From Escherichia coli (GTDB lineage: Bacteria > Pseudomonadota > Gammaproteobacteria > Enterobacterales > Enterobacteriaceae), in the NCBI RefSeq assembly GCF_003334335.1, contig NZ_QOWQ01000010.1: DNA of 64,000 nucleotides, one strand, 5' to 3'. The notes beneath the pieces were generated by a model, which searched no databases, was not told where the DNA came from, and saw only the letters and a list, made by a program, of their open reading frames with translations. A program made the position numbers and the translations under genes. Shown here piece after piece: positions 1-9,588 of the stretch. Positions within the stretch are counted from its first letter, which is position 1, and every line of letters begins with the position of its first letter.

Positions 1-3000
1 GAACCAACCGGAGGACGAATGGCGATTAAGCCGCCCGCCATGCCTTTACCGACATAGTCGTTGGCATCACCGGTCAGGTACAGTTCCACGCCGCCCGCGT
101 TCCACACGCCGAAGCTCTGGCCTGCGGTGCCGTTGAAGTACGCTTTGATAGGATCGGCTGCCAGCCCCTGATCGCCGTGCGTCTGGGCGATATAGCCTGA
201 AAGCGACGCGCCGACAGAACGGTCGGTGTTGCGAATATCGAACCAGAAGGTTTTGCTCTGGCGCTCATCGACAAACGGTTTCGCCTGTTGCAGCAACTGC
301 GCGTTCAGCAGGCCGTTATCAAACGGCGGGTTGTTTTCGGTGCAGTAGAGTGCCTTACCTGGATGCGGTTCGGCAGTCTCCAGCAGCTTCGACAGCGCCA
401 GCTTCTGCTGTTTGGCGGTGAAACCGTCCAGCTCTTTCAGCAGGTCGGTGCGACCAATCAGATCCACCAGACGTGTTACGCCAAGCTGTGCCATCAGCTC
501 GCGGGTTTCACGGGCGATAAACTCAAAGTAATTCGTCACCTTGAATGGCAGGCCGTGATAGTGGTTCTTACGCAGTTTGTCATCCTGAGTTGCTACACCC
601 GTTGCGCAGTTGTTCAGATGGCAAATACGTAGATATTTACAGCCGAGCGCCACCATCGGGCCAGTGCCGAAGCCGAAGCTTTCTGCGCCGAGAATCGCCG
701 CCTTGATGATATCGACACCCGTTTTCAGGCCGCCATCGACCTGCAAACGGATCTTGTGACGCAAGCCGTTAGCAACCAGCGCCTGCTGGGTTTCAACAAG
801 CCCCAGCTCCCACGGACAGCCTGCGTATTTCACCGATGAAAGCGGACTTGCGCCGGTGCCGCCGTCATAGCCTGCGATGGTGATCAAGTCCGCATAAGCT
901 TTTGCCACGCCAGTCGCGATGGTGCCTACTCCCGGTTCGGAAACCAGCTTCACGGAGATCATCGCTTTCGGGTTAACCTGCTTGAGGTCGAAAATGAGCT
1001 GCGCTAAGTCCTCGATAGAGTAGATATCGTGGTGCGGCGGCGGGGAGATCAGCGTCACTCCGGGCACCGAATAGCGCAGTTTGGCGATGTAAGGCGTGAC
1101 TTTATCACCCGGCAACTGACCGCCTTCGCCTGGCTTCGCGCCCTGGGCGACTTTAATCTGAATGACGTCGGCATTGACCAGATACGCCGGAGTAACCCCA
1201 AAGCGACCGGAAGCCACCTGCTTGATGCGCGACACTTTGTTGGTGCCGTAGCGCGCCGGGTCTTCGCCGCCTTCACCGGAGTTCGAATTACCGCCGATGC
1301 TGTTCATCGCTTCCGCCAGCGCCTCGTGGGCTTCCGGGCTTAACGCGCCGATAGACATCGCGGCGGTATCAAAGCGTTTAAACAGTTCGCTTGCCGGTTC
1401 AACATCAGCAATGTTGACCGCGTTTTCACCCGGCGTAATTGCCAGCAGATCGCGCAGCGTGGTTGCCGGACGCTCATTAACCAGCTTCGCGTATTCCTGA
1501 TAGTCGCTGTACTCGCCGCTTTGTACCGCTTGTTGCAGCGTGCGCACCACGTCCGGGTTGTAGGCGTGGTATTCGCCGCCGTGGACGTATTTCAGCAGAC
1601 CGCCCTGGCTGATGGGCTTACGCGCCAGCCAGGCACGTTTCGACAGATTCAGCAGATCCTGCTGGAAGTCTTCAAAGCTTGCTCCACCAATGCGGCTGAC
1701 CGCCCCCTGGAAGCACAGGCCCACTACATCATCGTGTAGACCGACCGCTTCAAACAGTTTCGAGCAGCGGTAAGAGGCGATGGTGGAGATGCCCATTTTG
1801 GACATGATTTTGTACAAGCCTTTGTTGATGCCGTTACGGTAGTTGAGCATCACGGTACGATAATCTTTGGCAATCGCATGGGTGTCTACCAGGCGGCCCA
1901 GCGTTTCATAGGCAAGGTATGGATAAATAGCCGTCGCGCCGAAGCCCAGCAACACGGCGAAGTGGTGCGGATCGCGGGCGCTGGCGGTTTCGACGATGAT
2001 GTTGGCATCGCAACGCAGGCTTTGATCGACCAGACGGGTCTGGATCGCGCCAACCGCCATCGGGGCTGGAACCGGCAGGCGATCTTTAGCGATATTCCGG
2101 TCGGAGAGCACCAGCAGCACGGTGCCGCTACGTACCATTTTTTCGGCTTTGTCGCACAGCTCTTTGACTGTCGCTTCGAGCGTGGTTTTAGTGACGTCAA
2201 AGGTGATATCCAGCGTATCTGCGCGGTAGTGCTCCTCTTTCATCGTCGTGAGCTGTTTGAAATCGGAGTAGAGCAGAATCGGCGATTTAAAGCTTAAACG
2301 GTGCGCCTGGCCCTCTGCTTCGCAAAAGACGTTCATTTCACGACCGATACTGGTGGCGAGCGACATAACATGCGCTTCACGCAGCGGGTCGATTGGCGGG
2401 TTAGTCACCTGGGCAAACTGCTGGCGGAAGTAGTCGTAAATAATGCGCGGCTGACTGGAGAGCACGGCGAATGGGGTATCATCGCCCATCGAACCGACCG
2501 CTTCCTGACCGTTTTCGCCCAGTACGCGAATTACGGAGTCCAGCTCTTCCGCGCTGTAGTTAAACTGTTTCTGGTAGCTGGCAAGCGTGTCGTCGTCCAG
2601 TTCGCGGCTACCCACTTCTTCATCGGGCAGATCTTCAAACGGTACCAGTCGGCGGACGTTTTTCTCCATCCACTCTTTATATGGATGGCGGCTTTTCAGA
2701 TCGTCATCGGTTTCTGCCGAGTGCAGAATACGCCCACTGCGGGTGTCGATAACCATCAGTTCGCCTGGCCCGACGCGGCCTTTTTCGACCACTTCGTCAG
2801 GCTGGTAATCCCAGATACCGACTTCAGAGGCGCAGGTGATGAGCTTATCTTTGGTGATGACGTAGCGCGCCGGACGCAGACCGTTACGGTCGAGGTTACA
2901 GGCGGCAAAACGACCGTCGGACATCACGATGCCCGCCGGGCCATCCCACGGCTCCATATGCATGGAGTTAAAGTCAAAGAAGGCACGCAGTTCCGGGTCC

Positions 3001-3944
3001 ATATCCGGGTTGTTCTGCCAGGCGGGTGGTACTAATAGACGCATGGCGCGGATGATATCCATCCCGCCTGCCAGCAGCAGTTCCAGCATGTTATCCATCG
3101 AACTGGAGTCAGAGCCGGTTTCGTTGACGAACGGTGCGGCGTCGTGCAGGTCAGGGATAAGCGGTGTCTGGAATTTATAAGTACGCGCACGCGCCCATTG
3201 GCGGTTACCGGTGATGGTGTTGATTTCACCGTTATGCGCCAGATAGCGGAACGGTTGCGCCAGCGGCCAGCGCGGTACGGTGTTAGTGGAGAAGCGCTGG
3301 TGGAACAGGCAAATGGCCGATTCCAGACGCAGGTCCGCAAGATCCAGATAAAAGCGCGGCAGATCCGTCGGCATACACAGACCTTTATAGATGTTCACCA
3401 GATTCGACAGGCTACAGACGTAGAAGTCTTTGTCGGCTTCGAGACGCTTTTCAATGCGGCGGCGGGCGATAAACAGACGGCGCTCCATATCGCGTGGACG
3501 CCAGCCTGCCGGGGCGTTCACAAAAATTTGCTCAATGCGTGGCAGAGAGGAGAGGGCGATTTCACCCAGCACGCCTTCGTTAGTGGGGACATCACGCCAG
3601 CCCACAATCGACAAGGTTTCGCGTTGCAGTTCTTCTTCAACGATGCGGCGTGCGGCAGCGGCGAGTTCAGGATCTTTATTCAGGAAGAGCATCCCGACAG
3701 CGTAGTTTTTTGCTAAACGCCAGCCGCGCTCCTGCGCAACGATGCGAAAAAAGCGATCCGGTTTTTGTAACAGCAAGCCGCAACCGTCGCCGGTTTTACC
3801 ATCGGCGAGAATCGCGCCACGGTGCTGCATGCGGGCCAGTGCGTGTATTGCAGTACGCACTACCTTGTGGCTAGGTTCGCCTTCTATGTGGGCGATCAGG
3901 CCGAAACCACAGTTATCCCTCTCAAGGGATTTATCGTACAACAT
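1..3944 (-). CDS. gltB: Glutamate synthase (NADPH) large subunit, N-terminal ~1314 codons; the 3-prime end lies beyond the left edge
   Basis: Minus-strand translation from 3944 gives MLYDKSLERDNCGFGLIAH (propeptide then catalytic Cys) and reaches DYVGKGMAGGLIAIRPP at the window edge. An in-frame upstream ATG at 4037 (MTRKPRRH...) is an alternative start. Absent from the ORF track because its stop is outside the window. Confidence 0.93.
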   Translation of the reverse strand, partial: MLYDKSLERDNCGFGLIAHIEGEPSHKVVRTAIHALARMQHRGAILADGKTGDGCGLLLQKPDRFFRIVAQERGWRLAKNYAVGMLFLNKDPELAAAARRIVEEELQRETLSIVGWRDVPTNEGVLGEIALSSLPRIEQIFVNAPAGWRPRDMERRLFIARRRIEKRLEADKDFYVCSLSNLVNIYKGLCMPTDLPRFYLDLADLRLESAICLFHQRFSTNTVPRWPLAQPFRYLAHNGEINTITGNRQWARARTYKFQTPLIPDLHDAAPFVNETGSDSSSMDNMLELLLAGGMDIIRAMRLLVPPAWQNNPDMDPELRAFFDFNSMHMEPWDGPAGIVMSDGRFAACNLDRNGLRPARYVITKDKLITCASEVGIWDYQPDEVVEKGRVGPGELMVIDTRSGRILHSAETDDDLKSRHPYKEWMEKNVRRLVPFEDLPDEEVGSRELDDDTLASYQKQFNYSAEELDSVIRVLGENGQEAVGSMGDDTPFAVLSSQPRIIYDYFRQQFAQVTNPPIDPLREAHVMSLATSIGREMNVFCEAEGQAHRLSFKSPILLYSDFKQLTTMKEEHYRADTLDITFDVTKTTLEATVKELCDKAEKMVRSGTVLLVLSDRNIAKDRLPVPAPMAVGAIQTRLVDQSLRCDANIIVETASARDPHHFAVLLGFGATAIYPYLAYETLGRLVDTHAIAKDYRTVMLNYRNGINKGLYKIMSKMGISTIASYRCSKLFEAVGLHDDVVGLCFQGAVSRIGGASFEDFQQDLLNLSKRAWLARKPISQGGLLKYVHGGEYHAYNPDVVRTLQQAVQSGEYSDYQEYAKLVNERPATTLRDLLAITPGENAVNIADVEPASELFKRFDTAAMSIGALSPEAHEALAEAMNSIGGNSNSGEGGEDPARYGTNKVSRIKQVASGRFGVTPAYLVNADVIQIKVAQGAKPGEGGQLPGDKVTPYIAKLRYSVPGVTLISPPPHHDIYSIEDLAQLIFDLKQVNPKAMISVKLVSEPGVGTIATGVAKAYADLITIAGYDGGTGASPLSSVKYAGCPWELGLVETQQALVANGLRHKIRLQVDGGLKTGVDIIKAAILGAESFGFGTGPMVALGCKYLRICHLNNCATGVATQDDKLRKNHYHGLPFKVTNYFEFIARETRELMAQLGVTRLVDLIGRTDLLKELDGFTAKQQKLALSKLLETAEPHPGKALYCTENNPPFDNGLLNAQLLQQAKPFVDERQSKTFWFDIRNTDRSVGASLSGYIAQTHGDQGLAADPIKAYFNGTAGQSFGVWNAGGVELYLTGDANDYVGKGMAGGLIAIRPPVG

Positions 3945-4618
3945 ATCGTGAACCTCCCCCAGGCTCTGCGGGAACCCCACTTCCGAACCGCTGCGCACGG
4001 GCACAGAAAGAGCGTGGCGACGGGGTTTGCGTGTCATACGCGCGCCTCGCATTCGCCCCCTTGTTGTCCTTTTCGCATCGGTTAATACGGTGAAGAGGGG
4101 ATCTCAATTACTGCATAAATATGATGAGCAGGCTGCTCATCCAGAAAGCTTCCAGCGGATTTCCAACTTATCGGGAAAGCTGATACAGGTCAAATGGCAA
4201 GCTTATTGGTACAGAAATGTGCTTTAGCGCAAAATTCTTTATTAAATGACTGAAATTAAAATGGATTTTATCTTTAAGGCTAAAAGGGAAGTCGTTAGAG
4301 AAACAGTCAATTCCTGACTGTCATAAAGGTGTGTTAACCCTTATCCTGCCTTGAACTGACGACAAAACCAGCATTTTATACTGCCTTAATTGGTAATGAC
4401 GTTTCATGCTACTGTTTTTGCCTAAAATCCATCAGGAGATAAAAAAATCTGACACAAGATAAGCAAAAGTGATTTATGTGATTATGCATGAAATTTCGGT
4501 AATTTTGATTGATTATGCAGTTGATAAAAGCAGGCCGGGACGATTGATCCAGGTCATCGCCGAATTGAGCTAAAAATGGCAGGCTTTGGCCTCTTTTCAA
4601 GGCGCGGTCTATCAGATT

Positions 4619-5548
4619 ATGCAGTTACAGAAATTAGTCAATATGTTTGGTGGTGATCTCACCCGTCGTTATGGGCAAAAGGTGCATAAGCTGACGCTGC
4701 ACGGCGGTTTTAGCTGCCCTAACCGTGACGGTACCATCGGGCGTGGTGGCTGCACATTCTGTAATGTTGCCTCGTTTGCCGATGAAGCGCAGCAGCATCG
4801 TTCCATTGCCGAGCAACTGGCGCACCAGGCGAATTTAGTTAACCGCGCTAAACGCTATCTGGCCTACTTTCAGGCGTATACCAGCACCTTTGCGGAAGTT
4901 CAGGTGCTGCGTTCTATGTATCAGCAGGCGGTGAGCCAGGCCAATATTGTCGGTTTGTGTGTGGGTACCCGCCCGGACTGCGTGCCGGATGCGGTGCTGG
5001 ATCTGCTTTGCGAATATAAGGACCAGGGTTACGAAGTGTGGCTGGAGCTGGGGCTACAAACCGCCCACGACAAAACACTGCGTCGCATCAACCGCGGCCA
5101 TGATTTTGCCTGTTATCAGCGTACAACCCAGCTGGCACGTCAGCGCGGGCTGAAGGTGTGTTCCCACTTAATTGTCGGCCTGCCTGGCGAAGGGCAGGCT
5201 GAATGTTTGCAAACGCTGGAGCGAGTGGTTGAAACCGGCGTGGACGGCATAAAGCTGCATCCGCTGCATATTGTGAAAGGCAGCATTATGGCGAAAGCCT
5301 GGGAAGCGGGGCGTTTGAACGGTATTGAACTGGAGGATTACACGCTCACTGCCGGAGAAATGATTCGCCATACGCCACCGGAAGTGATCTACCACCGCAT
5401 TTCCGCCAGCGCCCGTCGCCCGACGCTGCTTGCTCCGCTGTGGTGCGAAAATCGATGGACGGGAATGGTCGAGCTGGATCGCTATCTGAATGAACATGGC
5501 GTACAGGGATCGGCGCTGGGACGTCCGTGGCTACCTCCAACGGAGTAG
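4619..5548 (+). CDS. yhcC: Radical SAM family protein YhcC
   Basis: ORF-track 4586..5548; trimmed 11 codons to MQLQKLVNMFGG to give the 309 aa I recall for YhcC; Cys-rich CPNRDGTIGRGGCTFC motif. Confidence 0.88.
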   Translation: MQLQKLVNMFGGDLTRRYGQKVHKLTLHGGFSCPNRDGTIGRGGCTFCNVASFADEAQQHRSIAEQLAHQANLVNRAKRYLAYFQAYTSTFAEVQVLRSMYQQAVSQANIVGLCVGTRPDCVPDAVLDLLCEYKDQGYEVWLELGLQTAHDKTLRRINRGHDFACYQRTTQLARQRGLKVCSHLIVGLPGEGQAECLQTLERVVETGVDGIKLHPLHIVKGSIMAKAWEAGRLNGIELEDYTLTAGEMIRHTPPEVIYHRISASARRPTLLAPLWCENRWTGMVELDRYLNEHGVQGSALGRPWLPPTE

Positions 5549-5643
5549 GTCGTTGAGGGGAATTCCGCATTTCTCACACAATTTATAACGTAACTGTCAG
5601 AATTGGGTATTATTGGGGCAGGTTGTCGTGAAGGAATTCCCTA

Positions 5644-7980
5644 ATGAAGCAAATTCGTCTGCTGGCGCAGTATTATGTTGACCTGATGATGAAGTTAGGT
5701 CTGGTGCGCTTCTCAATGTTGCTGGCGCTGGCCCTCGTCGTTCTTGCCATTGTGGTACAAATGGCGGTAACCATGGTGCTGCATGGTCAGGTCGAAAGCA
5801 TTGATGTTATTCGTTCTATCTTCTTTGGTTTGCTGATTACGCCGTGGGCGGTCTACTTTCTATCGGTGGTCGTCGAGCAACTGGAGGAGTCACGACAACG
5901 TCTGTCACGGCTGGTGCAAAAACTGGAGGAGATGCGCGAGCGCGATTTGAGCCTCAACGTTCAGTTAAAAGATAATATTGCCCAGCTAAATCAGGAAATT
6001 GCCGTTCGTGAAAAAGCGGAAGCAGAACTGCAGGAAACCTTCGGCCAACTGAAAATTGAAATCAAAGAGCGCGAAGAGACACAAATTCAGCTCGAGCAGC
6101 AATCCTCATTCTTACGTTCCTTCCTTGATGCTTCACCCGACCTGGTTTTTTATCGTAACGAAGATAAAGAGTTTTCCGGCTGTAACCGCGCGATGGAGCT
6201 GCTGACCGGAAAAAGCGAAAAACAACTGGTTCACCTGAAACCTGCTGATGTTTACTCACCGGAAGCCGCCGCAAAAGTCATTGAAACCGATGAAAAAGTG
6301 TTCCGTCATAATGTGTCACTGACCTATGAACAGTGGCTGGATTACCCGGACGGGCGCAAAGCCTGCTTTGAAATCCGTAAAGTGCCGTACTACGACCGCG
6401 TGGGTAAACGTCACGGTTTGATGGGCTTTGGTCGCGACATTACCGAGCGTAAGCGGTATCAGGATGCGCTTGAACGGGCCAGCCGCGACAAAACGACGTT
6501 TATCTCCACCATCAGTCACGAATTGCGTACACCGCTGAACGGTATCGTCGGTCTGAGCCGCATTCTGCTGGATACCGAACTCACCGCCGAGCAGGAAAAA
6601 TATCTCAAGACCATCCATGTTTCGGCCGTCACGCTGGGGAATATCTTTAACGATATTATCGACATGGATAAGATGGAACGGCGCAAGGTCCAGCTTGATA
6701 ATCAACCGGTTGATTTCACCAGCTTCCTTGCCGATCTGGAAAATCTCTCCGCATTGCAGGCGCAACAAAAAGGATTGCGCTTTAACCTGGAGCCGACGCT
6801 GCCATTACCGCATCAGGTCATTACCGACGGGACGCGTTTACGGCAGATCCTGTGGAACCTCATCAGTAACGCCGTCAAATTCACCCAGCAAGGCCAGGTT
6901 ACCGTGCGCGTGCGCTACGATGAAGGCGATATGCTGCATTTTGAAGTGGAAGACTCTGGTATCGGCATTCCGCAGGATGAGCTAGATAAAATTTTCGCCA
7001 TGTATTACCAGGTGAAAGACAGTCATGGCGGTAAACCTGCCACCGGCACCGGTATTGGTCTGGCCGTTTCTCGTCGTCTGGCGAAAAATATGGGCGGCGA
7101 TATTACGGTTACCAGCGAACAGGGCAAAGGTTCAACCTTTACGTTGACGATCCACGCACCGTCGGTAGCAGAAGAGGTCGATGATGCGTTTGATGAAGAC
7201 GATATGCCTTTACCGGCGCTGAATGTGCTGCTGGTGGAAGACATTGAACTGAACGTGATTGTTGCGCGTTCTGTGCTGGAAAAATTAGGTAACAGCGTTG
7301 ATGTCGCCATGACCGGCAAGGCGGCGCTGGAGATGTTTAAACCGGGCGAATACGACCTGGTGTTGCTGGATATTCAGTTGCCAGATATGACCGGGCTGGA
7401 TATCTCTCGTGAACTGACGAAACGTTATCCGCGCGAGGATTTACCGCCGCTGGTGGCCTTAACCGCTAACGTGCTGAAAGACAAACAAGAGTACCTCAAT
7501 GCTGGAATGGATGATGTGCTGAGTAAGCCGCTTTCTGTTCCGGCGCTAACCGCGATGATCAAGAAATTCTGGGATACCCAGGATGATGAGGAGAGTACGG
7601 TGACGACAGAAGAGAACAGTAAATCAGAAGCATTGCTCGATATTCCCATGCTGGAACAGTATCTCGAACTTGTAGGACCGAAGCTGATCACCGACGGGTT
7701 AGCGGTGTTTGAGAAGATGATGCCGGGCTATGTCAGCGTGCTGGAGTCGAATCTGACGGCGCAGGATAAAAAAGGCATTGTTGAGGAAGGACATAAAATT
7801 AAAGGTGCGGCGGGGTCAGTGGGGTTACGCCATCTGCAACAGCTGGGTCAGCAAATTCAGTCTCCTGACCTTCCGGCCTGGGAAGATAACGTCGGTGAAT
7901 GGATTGAAGAGATGAAAGAAGAGTGGCGTCACGACGTAGAAGTGCTGAAAGCGTGGGTGGCAAAAGCCACTAAAAAATGA
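5644..7980 (+). CDS. arcB: Aerobic respiration control sensor histidine kinase ArcB
   Basis: 778 aa ORF; N-terminal transmembrane segment, HisKA motif ISHELRTPLN, receiver and HPt regions; matches ArcB as recalled. Confidence 0.97.
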   Translation: MKQIRLLAQYYVDLMMKLGLVRFSMLLALALVVLAIVVQMAVTMVLHGQVESIDVIRSIFFGLLITPWAVYFLSVVVEQLEESRQRLSRLVQKLEEMRERDLSLNVQLKDNIAQLNQEIAVREKAEAELQETFGQLKIEIKEREETQIQLEQQSSFLRSFLDASPDLVFYRNEDKEFSGCNRAMELLTGKSEKQLVHLKPADVYSPEAAAKVIETDEKVFRHNVSLTYEQWLDYPDGRKACFEIRKVPYYDRVGKRHGLMGFGRDITERKRYQDALERASRDKTTFISTISHELRTPLNGIVGLSRILLDTELTAEQEKYLKTIHVSAVTLGNIFNDIIDMDKMERRKVQLDNQPVDFTSFLADLENLSALQAQQKGLRFNLEPTLPLPHQVITDGTRLRQILWNLISNAVKFTQQGQVTVRVRYDEGDMLHFEVEDSGIGIPQDELDKIFAMYYQVKDSHGGKPATGTGIGLAVSRRLAKNMGGDITVTSEQGKGSTFTLTIHAPSVAEEVDDAFDEDDMPLPALNVLLVEDIELNVIVARSVLEKLGNSVDVAMTGKAALEMFKPGEYDLVLLDIQLPDMTGLDISRELTKRYPREDLPPLVALTANVLKDKQEYLNAGMDDVLSKPLSVPALTAMIKKFWDTQDDEESTVTTEENSKSEALLDIPMLEQYLELVGPKLITDGLAVFEKMMPGYVSVLESNLTAQDKKGIVEEGHKIKGAAGSVGLRHLQQLGQQIQSPDLPAWEDNVGEWIEEMKEEWRHDVEVLKAWVAKATKK

Positions 7981-8092
7981 CCCCGGCTAGACCGGGGTGC
8001 GCGAATACTGCGCCAACACCAGGGAAATCTTGGCTGCGCCGTAAATTATTATGATGAGTTACAAGGGCACAGCACTGTTTTTCAGGCCGCAC
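7972..8092 (-). ncRNA. arcZ: Hfq-dependent small RNA ArcZ (RyhA/SraH)
   Basis: Reverse complement reads GTGCGGCCTGAAAAACAGTGCTGTGCCC...CACCCCGGTCTAGCCGGGGTCATTTTTT, matching the ArcZ sequence as I recall it. Terminator hairpin CCCCGG/CCGGGG at 7981-7997; the U-run overlaps the arcB stop codon. Confidence 0.8.
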
Positions 8093-8209
8093 GCAGTTAA
8101 GATAGCAAAACTTAAATGATTTGTTACATGAATCAGTTAAATGTGTGATGCGTACCATTTTTATTAAAAAAATTAATGTGTTTCAGTCAATTGCGAAAGG
8201 ATGATCACA

Positions 8210-8863
8210 ATGAAGAAAATTGGCGTAATTCTGAGCGGATGCGGCGTCTATGACGGTTCTGAAATTCATGAAGCGGTGTTGACGTTGTTAGCTATTTCAC
8301 GCAGCGGTGCGCAGGCGGTCTGCTTTGCACCGGATAAGCAGCAGGTTGATGTTATCAACCATTTAACTGGCGAAGCGATGACGGAAACGCGCAATGTGCT
8401 GATTGAAGCGGCACGAATAACGCGCGGTGAAATCCGTCCTCTGGCCCAGGCCGATGCCGCTGAACTGGATGCGTTGATTGTGCCGGGGGGGTTTGGCGCG
8501 GCGAAGAATTTAAGCAATTTTGCCAGTCTTGGTAGCGAATGCACCGTTGACCGTGAATTAAAGGCGCTGGCACAAGCGATGCATCAGGCCGGAAAACCGC
8601 TTGGTTTTATGTGTATTGCCCCGGCGATGCTGCCGAAAATTTTCGATTTCCCGCTGCGTTTGACCATCGGTACTGATATCGATACCGCAGAAGTGCTGGA
8701 AGAGATGGGCGCGGAGCATGTGCCGTGTCCTGTCGATGATATCGTGGTTGATGAAGACAATAAGATTGTCACCACCCCAGCATATATGCTGGCGCAGAAC
8801 ATTGCAGAAGCGGCGAGCGGCATTGATAAGCTGGTTTCCCGCGTGCTGGTTCTGGCTGAATGA
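8210..8863 (+). CDS. elbB: DJ-1/PfpI-family protein ElbB (YhbL)
   Basis: ORF-track 8201..8863; start moved to [12 protein letters not shown] (217 aa). Confidence 0.9.
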
Positions 8864-9588
8864 GTAAAAGCCGCTTAACGGTGTTTAGTTTCGTTCGCCG
8901 TTTTCTTTTGCGGTTAATGGTTGTCCTCGCCGTTTTCTGGGGCGGGGGCATCGCGTTGTTTAGCGTTGCGCCTGTTCCCTTCTCAGCGGTAATGGTCGAG
9001 CGACAGGTCAGCGCCTGGCTGCATGGCAATTTTCGTTACGTGGCACATTCTGACTGGGTCAGTATGGATCAAATCTCGCCGTGGATGGGACTGGCGGTGA
9101 TTGCCGCAGAAGATCAGAAATTTCCTGAGCACTGGGGCTTTGATGTCGCTTCCATTGAGAAAGCCCTGGCGCACAACGAGCGCAATGAAAACCGTATTCG
9201 CGGTGCTTCAACGATTTCTCAACAGACAGCCAAAAATCTCTTTTTATGGGATGGGCGTAGCTGGGTTCGAAAAGGGCTGGAAGCCGGATTAACGCTGGGG
9301 ATAGAAACGGTCTGGAGCAAAAAGCGTATCCTGACGGTTTACCTGAATATCGCCGAATTTGGCGACGGTGTGTTTGGCGTCGAAGCTGCGGCACAACGTT
9401 ATTTCCACAAACCCGCGAGCAAACTTACCCGGTCGGAAGCTGCATTACTGGCAGCTGTATTACCTAATCCACTTCGTTTCAAAGTCTCCTCGCCATCGGG
9501 CTACGTGCGTAGCCGTCAGGCGTGGATTTTACGGCAGATGTATCAGTTAGGCGGTGAGCCGTTTATGCAACAACACCAGCTGGATTAA
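8860..9588 (+). CDS. mtgA: Monofunctional peptidoglycan glycosyltransferase
   Basis: 242 aa; transglycosylase motifs ([21 protein letters not shown]); ATGA overlap with the elbB stop. Confidence 0.95.

Follow-up and report, generated by a model that had tools for sequence, protein, structure and literature searches.

Why do gltB and yhcC of Escherichia coli, two divergently oriented genes, lie so far apart, and what does the DNA between them do? In the window, i.e. the whole stretch of 64,000 nucleotides analysed here, RefSeq places the start of gltB (minus strand) at 3944 and that of yhcC (plus strand) at 4619 with no feature between them, leaving a gap of 674 feature-free bp (3945-4618) that ends directly before the yhcC ATG at 4619. 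We conclude with high confidence that this gap is a composite regulatory region, which has already been characterised experimentally. It is the known control region of gltBDF and yhcC and is ordinary save for a conserved, undescribed fold in the gltB leader RNA, which may be the only new part of the spacer.

The left border of the gap is set by the following feature:

3942..3944, minus strand: start codon ATG of gltB (RefSeq/PGAP annotation), the coding sequence running leftwards off the window

An initial annotation of this DNA had outlined the spacer as 4038-4618 (~580 bp); its right edge holds, while its left edge has to be moved to 3945. The ATG at 4038 is in frame with gltB and opens a longer frame, and we rejected it as the gltB start since it is unconserved and the RefSeq/PGAP start lies at 3944. 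In 78 enterobacterial genomes the start at 3944 is the conserved one, the upstream in-frame ATG being missing in 49 and an in-frame stop being present seven codons upstream in 35; across genomes, the segment from 4038 to 3944 carries indels that are not multiples of three. A GGAGG Shine-Dalgarno (SD) sequence of gltB is found at 3957..3953 (minus strand). The same annotation took the spacer to be the largest non-coding stretch at this end of the window, which is borne out even across all 64 kb (the runner-up, between yhbX and leuU, has 458 bp). Its description as AT-rich applies to 4161-4618, with 62.4% AT compared to 48% in the window and a rank within the top 0.6% of 458-bp windows, but not to 3945-4160, which is GC-normal with 43% AT. 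The long A/T tracts pointed out at 4241-4270 and 4430-4450 are AT-rich (83% and 71%, the second including ATAAAAAAAT), though neither is pure A/T.

Over positions 3900-4700 the window matches E. coli K-12 MG1655 with 100% identity, window position x corresponding to NC_000913.3 position 3358669 - x. Read from gltB towards yhcC, the region comprises a gltB 5'UTR of ~216 nt, a sigma-70 core promoter of low strength, ~360 bp of AT-rich DNA serving as upstream activating region, and a yhcC control module. Others established where the regulators bind and how they affect expression; the mapping of these sites onto the window and the nearly indel-free spacing are the contribution made here. This reading rests on published experiments and on conservation; motif matches do not contribute to it. 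The earlier interpretation as a regulatory region is supported and proves incomplete rather than wrong, because transcribed gltB leader makes up about one third of the gap and the 80 bp proximal to yhcC hold an FNR-dependent promoter and a short divergent transcript.

The gltB promoter and its upstream activating region

The control region of gltBDF was analysed by Paul et al. 2007 (PMC1784095) using DNase I footprints and reporter fusions, in a pathway, that of glutamate synthase, which is credited in the same paper with ~15% of cellular ATP turnover in minimal medium. Transferring their sites to the window gives the following features:

4165..4193, minus strand: gltB core promoter, with -35 TTGACC (4193..4188), a 17-bp spacer and -10 TAAGTT (4170..4165), read from the sequence
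4215..4236 (-55 to -76), no strand: CRP site centred at -65.5, repressing (Paul 2007 footprint and gltcrp1/2 primers)
4235..4273, no strand: IHF footprint, -75 to -113 (Paul 2007), covering the A/T tract 4241-4270
4304..4414, no strand: three Lrp sites, with centres at 4312 (-152; palindrome CAGTCAATTCCTGACTG), 4375 (-215) and 4406 (-246) (Paul 2007)
4457..4475, no strand: conserved block AGATAAGCAAAAGTGATT, conservation 0.86 compared to 0.5-0.7 in the flanks
4478..4521, no strand: ArgR footprint, -361 to -318 (Paul 2007), with two ARG boxes at ~4483-4500 and ~4504-4521

The gltB +1 at ~4160 was derived from the numbering of Paul 2007 via the CRP 22-mer set by its mutagenic primers. The primers gltP1, gltP2 and gltcrp1/2 are found in the window (at 4459-4487, 4155-4174 and 4196-4252, respectively) and the numbering is self-consistent, -152 falling on the centre (4312) of the palindrome and the distance from the CRP edge to the -35 element being 21 bp, as stated in the paper. 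The FNR site placed by Grainger 2007 at -399.5 from the gltB start implies a +1 at 4151, and the position is accordingly uncertain by ~9 nt (4160 or 4151).

The initial annotation had suggested a multi-factor nucleoprotein promoter of gltBD bound by Lrp, IHF and other regulators, which agrees with these footprints and reporter fusions, and its first A/T tract, taken as regulator-related, indeed lies within the published IHF footprint. In the same study CRP and ArgR act negatively on gltB. Lrp at gltBDF is reported to exert its effect over a distance of more than 150 bp, not to respond to leucine and to depend on IHF as a co-activator. In our reading, IHF bends the DNA between -75 and -113 such that Lrp bound at -152, -215 and -246 can stabilise RNA polymerase, an activation that CRP-cAMP at -65.5 and ArgR at -318 to -361 dampen. 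The spacer would be long because activation at a distance needs a phased DNA scaffold, and we infer that the upstream region may form a DNA loop.

Comparative data fit such a scaffold. We recovered YhcC-anchored loci from 80 genomes of more than 20 genera and aligned 76 spacer sequences. The divergent order of gltB and yhcC is kept in all usable loci, with spacers of 656-688 bp, and hardly any indels occur between +1 and the yhcC ATG: in the 76 genomes the core promoter is invariant in length, the distance from the -35 element to the first Lrp site is 119-120 bp in every one, that from the -35 element to 4457 is 262-265 bp, and the ARG-box segment measures 84-85 bp. All variation in spacer length falls in the gltB 5'UTR, which has 200-230 nt. 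The sequence itself drifts, conservation at 4226-4455 being 0.5-0.77 and thus at or below that of third codon positions (0.67-0.78). Of the CRP site, a 22-mer with three mismatches to the core consensus, the half next to the promoter is the only conserved one; the distal half, like most of the IHF and Lrp sequence, is poorly conserved, so that details of the regulator sites may be specific to E. coli. Fixed spacing together with drifting sequence is consistent with a phased nucleoprotein scaffold as far as an alignment can tell, and a phasing constraint agrees with the cited result that an insertion of 5 bp lowers expression, whereas one of 10 bp does not. This provides an argument from natural variation, across genera, that selection keeps the architecture of the Lrp-IHF complex and not the exact sequences of its sites. 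One of the loci, from an assembly titled 'Chryseobacterium sp. 18061', is an enterobacterial yhcC-gltB locus close to those of Pluralibacter and Enterobacteriaceae; the assembly is probably mislabelled or contaminated.

Motif searches, by which the initial annotation had meant its reading to be checked, contribute little. Consensus scans for CRP, FNR and ARG boxes yield matches, none of them above chance in the 3.8-kb locus, for which reason we rejected them as stand-alone evidence, and a strict promoter scan of the locus gave no match. The ARG-box scan has a match at 4506-4519, and conservation of the boxes extends across genera. A second FNR-like match, CTGATACAGGTCAA at 4180-4193 with two mismatches and at chance level, overlaps the gltB -35 element and spacer; possibly it corresponds to the unconfirmed Fnr box of Fig. 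2A in Paul 2007. The conserved block at 4457-4475 sits between the third Lrp site and the ArgR footprint and has no assigned factor. Its ATA-N9-GAT arrangement is reminiscent of a Nac site.

The gltB leader RNA

The GC-normal third of the gap next to gltB is transcribed and contains the following features:

3945..4160, minus strand: gltB 5'UTR of ~216 nt (+1 at ~4160 from the Paul 2007 numbering), including the unconserved in-frame ATG at 4038
4123..4141, minus strand: leader hairpin 1 (+20 to +38), GAUGAGCA-GCC-UGCUCAUC, with invariant flanks
4096..4105, minus strand: candidate anti-SD segment GAGAUCCCCU (+56 to +65), predicted by RNAalifold to pair with the SD region 3951-3960
4008..4062, minus strand: leader hairpin 2 (+99 to +153), GC-rich, with a variable, deletable loop (RNAalifold)
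3855..3944, minus strand: gltB codons 1-30 with frozen synonymous sites (third-position conservation)

We consider it quite possible, if still short of probable, that the leader and the initial 90 nt of gltB coding sequence jointly form a cis-regulatory RNA not described so far, which hides the SD sequence and tunes the translation of glutamate synthase (GOGAT) or the formation of premature 3' ends in response to a metabolite, a protein or a small RNA, RyhB being a lead for the last. This would add to the promoter model and not replace it. Conservation at +1 to +65 is 0.93-0.98 and thus above the neutral level of ~0.7-0.78, and in more than 20 genera the third positions of gltB codons 1-30 are conserved at 0.98-0.99 compared to 0.78 over the first 480 codons, a freeze that points to constraint on the RNA or the DNA in addition to that on the protein. 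Alternatively, the conservation of the leader may stem from DNA-level sites downstream of +1. At hairpin 1, compensatory changes occur at four of the eight pairs, 98.8% of the cells are paired, and the covariation score is reached by none of 500 shuffles; it is an RNA structure because G-U pairs are confined to the gltB-sense strand. In hairpin 2 of the consensus fold, calculated with RNAalifold from 40 sequences, three pairs covary (e.g. UA 22, CG 11 and UG 4). The helix between anti-SD and SD is kept in all 40 sequences with one compensatory change, U-A to C-G, in Escherichia.

Other observations weaken the case for a cis-regulatory RNA. Single-sequence folding of the leader gives structures no more stable (z = -0.69 and +0.22) than those of shuffled sequences, and in the minimum-energy fold of the E. 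coli sequence the anti-SD segment pairs elsewhere. A closing helix is predicted by RNAalifold between leader +5 to +18 and gltB codons ~20-27, both strands of which are invariant, so that the long-range helices are beyond the reach of covariation. No regulatory phenotype has been reported. A pattern scan flags hairpin 1 (4141..4123) as an intrinsic terminator, and we rejected it as terminator or attenuator, its tail being AUAUUUAUGC and Term-seq having no end at genome positions 33545xx. Between the anti-SD segment and hairpin 2, at 4070-4094 (minus strand), a segment of ~14 nt with a small hairpin, AGCAAGUCCUCAAACUUG, is absent in Escherichia and Salmonella and present in nearly all other genera.

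Term-seq in M63 glucose, a minimal medium, maps an RNA 3' end to 4012 (genome 3354657, +149; Adams 2021), which falls in the 3' strand of hairpin 2. In Ribo-seq upon RyhB induction, gltB footprints drop ~2-fold while the mRNA barely changes, gltB being listed as a putative, unvalidated target, and the RyhB core GCUUCCAG shows perfect complementarity to CUGGAAGC, an invariant segment of the leader (+6 to +13; 4148-4155, minus strand); the predicted duplex of -27.3 kcal/mol is unremarkable, however, as it is equalled or beaten by 65% of background windows. A preprint on OmrA/B reports lower levels of the GltB and GltD proteins, an effect that is possibly indirect according to its authors. We put forward more tentatively still the specific proposal that leader +1 to +216 and gltB codons 1-30 form an undescribed cis-regulatory RNA common to the Enterobacteriaceae, which with its two covarying hairpins and hidden SD might set GOGAT translation or premature 3'-end formation and might possibly act as a RyhB-responsive, iron-sparing switch for this Fe-S enzyme. 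The constraint on the gltB leader suggests a post-transcriptional layer in the control of glutamate synthase, which the transcription-centred literature leaves unaddressed.

The yhcC side and further readings of the spacer

The opposite end of the composite regulatory region has the following features:

4539..4562, no strand: FNR site, core TTGATCCAGGTCAT at 4544-4557 (24-mer from the ChIP-chip of Grainger 2007)
4592..4618, plus strand: 5'UTR of yhcC (mnmL), start at genome 3354077 (PMC7967276, Table S1); coding sequence 4619-5548 by annotation
4528..4605, minus strand (annotated as 4605..4500): short divergent transcript, candidate ncRNA G0-10702, start at genome 3354064 (PMC7967276)
4614..4641, minus strand: promoter-like TTGACT-N16-TAATCT with an overlapping CATAAT, inside yhcC codons 1-8 and directed towards gltB, read from the sequence

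Grainger et al. 2007 gave exactly this 24-mer as the predicted FNR site of their ChIP-chip target 'yhcC/gltB', and Myers et al. 2013 found yhcC to be directly activated by FNR using ChIP-seq and RNA-seq. A physiological context comes from a 2026 preprint, in which YhcC replaces the MnmC oxidase activity in anaerobic tRNA modification. The core has two mismatches to TTGAT-N4-ATCAA, and one motif match is at chance level (1.66 expected); a block of 22 nt inside the 24-mer (4541-4562) is invariant in all genera. The box is centred at 4550.5, which puts it 41.5 bp upstream of 4592, the reported yhcC start, and suggests a class II geometry. The start sites of yhcC and G0-10702 overlap back-to-back by ~14 bp. 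The yhcC module combines an FNR site in a putative class II position with the overlapping promoter of a short gltB-sense transcript ending at 4528, and it is plausible that the two promoters compete and that FNR would relieve this competition. The start-site supplements of Cappable-seq and Kim 2012 hold no rows for the gltB-yhcC locus.

It appears unlikely that the conserved block proximal to yhcC encodes a trans-acting small RNA, namely G0-10702. The transcript has a reported start at 4605 and a Term-seq 3' end at 4528 (genome 3354141; M63 glucose), between GCUU and UUAUC, and its RNA was reported to be fairly abundant with yhcC being hardly detectable. Moreover, the TTGACT and TAATCT elements, which lie upstream of this start, are conserved at yhcC synonymous sites, third-position conservation being 0.93 over yhcC codons 1-15 compared to 0.67 over 295 codons; the element at 4614..4641 failed the strict promoter scan. 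On the other hand, the block consists of the FNR site, its invariant core, and of the yhcC core promoter, so that constraint at the DNA level is enough and may explain the conservation of G0-10702. The RNA forms a weak hairpin, its fold is not significant (z = +0.82), it has neither a strong terminator nor an Rfam family, and EcoCyc removed it in 2019 because evidence was lacking. Positions 4614-4654, i.e. yhcC codons 1-12, are nearly invariant, both rare TTA codons included.

Far less probable is a small protein gene hidden in the spacer, for which the reading frames themselves speak. The one listed in the initial annotation is the following:

4409..4600, minus strand: ORF of 63 codons with a TTG start, not a gene

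This ORF, already doubted in the initial annotation, exists, yet it is intact in only one of the 76 genomes, with a median of nine codons before the first stop; a 66-codon ORF on the plus strand is intact in two of the 76, and the start of a 34-aa ORF is not conserved. A 10-codon upstream ORF in the gltB leader, MSSLLIIFMQ, starts within hairpin 1, and we rejected it since in four genomes its ATG has become ATA and the opposite hairpin arm carries a compensating change, from which it follows that selection acts on the pairing and not on the peptide.

That the gap is a mobile-element remnant or horizontally acquired DNA, as its AT-richness relative to the flanks might suggest, can practically be dismissed, given that 5417 of 5426 complete E. 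coli genomes contain it in full, that across more than 20 genera synteny is the same and length stays within ~16 bp, and that the spacer contains no tandem repeats, no tRNA match and, in an Rfam 15 covariance-model search of 3000-9000 (E-value cut-off of 1), no match. The few short repeats are at chance level or represent ARG boxes: an 18-nt inverted repeat (4101-4118 and 4617-4634) is expected by chance for a 9-mer seed in 800 bp (rough estimate), and GATTATGCA occurs three times (4480-4488, 4511-4519 and 4615-4623), two copies being ARG-box halves and the third, which lies over the yhcC ATG and the divergent -10 element, possibly being a lone ARG-like half-site. The sole Rfam match in the searched region is the small RNA ArcZ at 7985-8092 (minus strand; full-length, 120.8 bits), which adjoins arcB as in K-12.

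Relation to known systems

AT-rich upstream arrays, DNA bending and sensitivity to helical phase are known from ilvIH, from the upstream activating sequence of ilvGMEDA and from pap. The gltBDF region is reported to differ from these in the long distance of Lrp action, the insensitivity to leucine and the requirement for IHF as a co-activator.

With class II FNR promoters (-41.5), such as that of nrdDG, yhcC shares a site resembling TTGAT-N4-ATCAA, occupancy in ChIP and anaerobic activation, and nrdDG is cited as being FNR-activated like yhcC in the 2026 preprint. It differs from them in two mismatches in the distal half-site and in the lack of a recognisable -10 element, and its start is taken from one secondary compilation.

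The rpoS leader, in which upstream pairing hides the SD sequence and small RNAs open it, resembles the gltB leader, which is likewise long and conserved with a predicted SD sequestration. In Staphylococcus, the iron-sparing small RNA IsrR is reported to repress glutamate synthase, and gltB shows a hint of translational repression by RyhB. Unlike in the rpoS leader and IsrR, the pairing in the gltB leader is predicted only, and it has no known effector and no thermodynamic signal.

Closest of all is the E. coli gltBDF promoter region itself (Ernsting 1993, Wiese 1997, Paul 2001, 2007), which is the same DNA and whose three Lrp sites and IHF, CRP and ArgR sites map one-to-one onto the window. 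In this respect the spacer adds nothing new, being a textbook convergence of Lrp, IHF, CRP and, on the yhcC side, FNR with the local regulator ArgR in one intergenic region. The published gltBDF model comprises neither the leader RNA structure nor the block at 4457-4475 nor the yhcC side; it is this block and the strong constraint on the leader that fall outside it.
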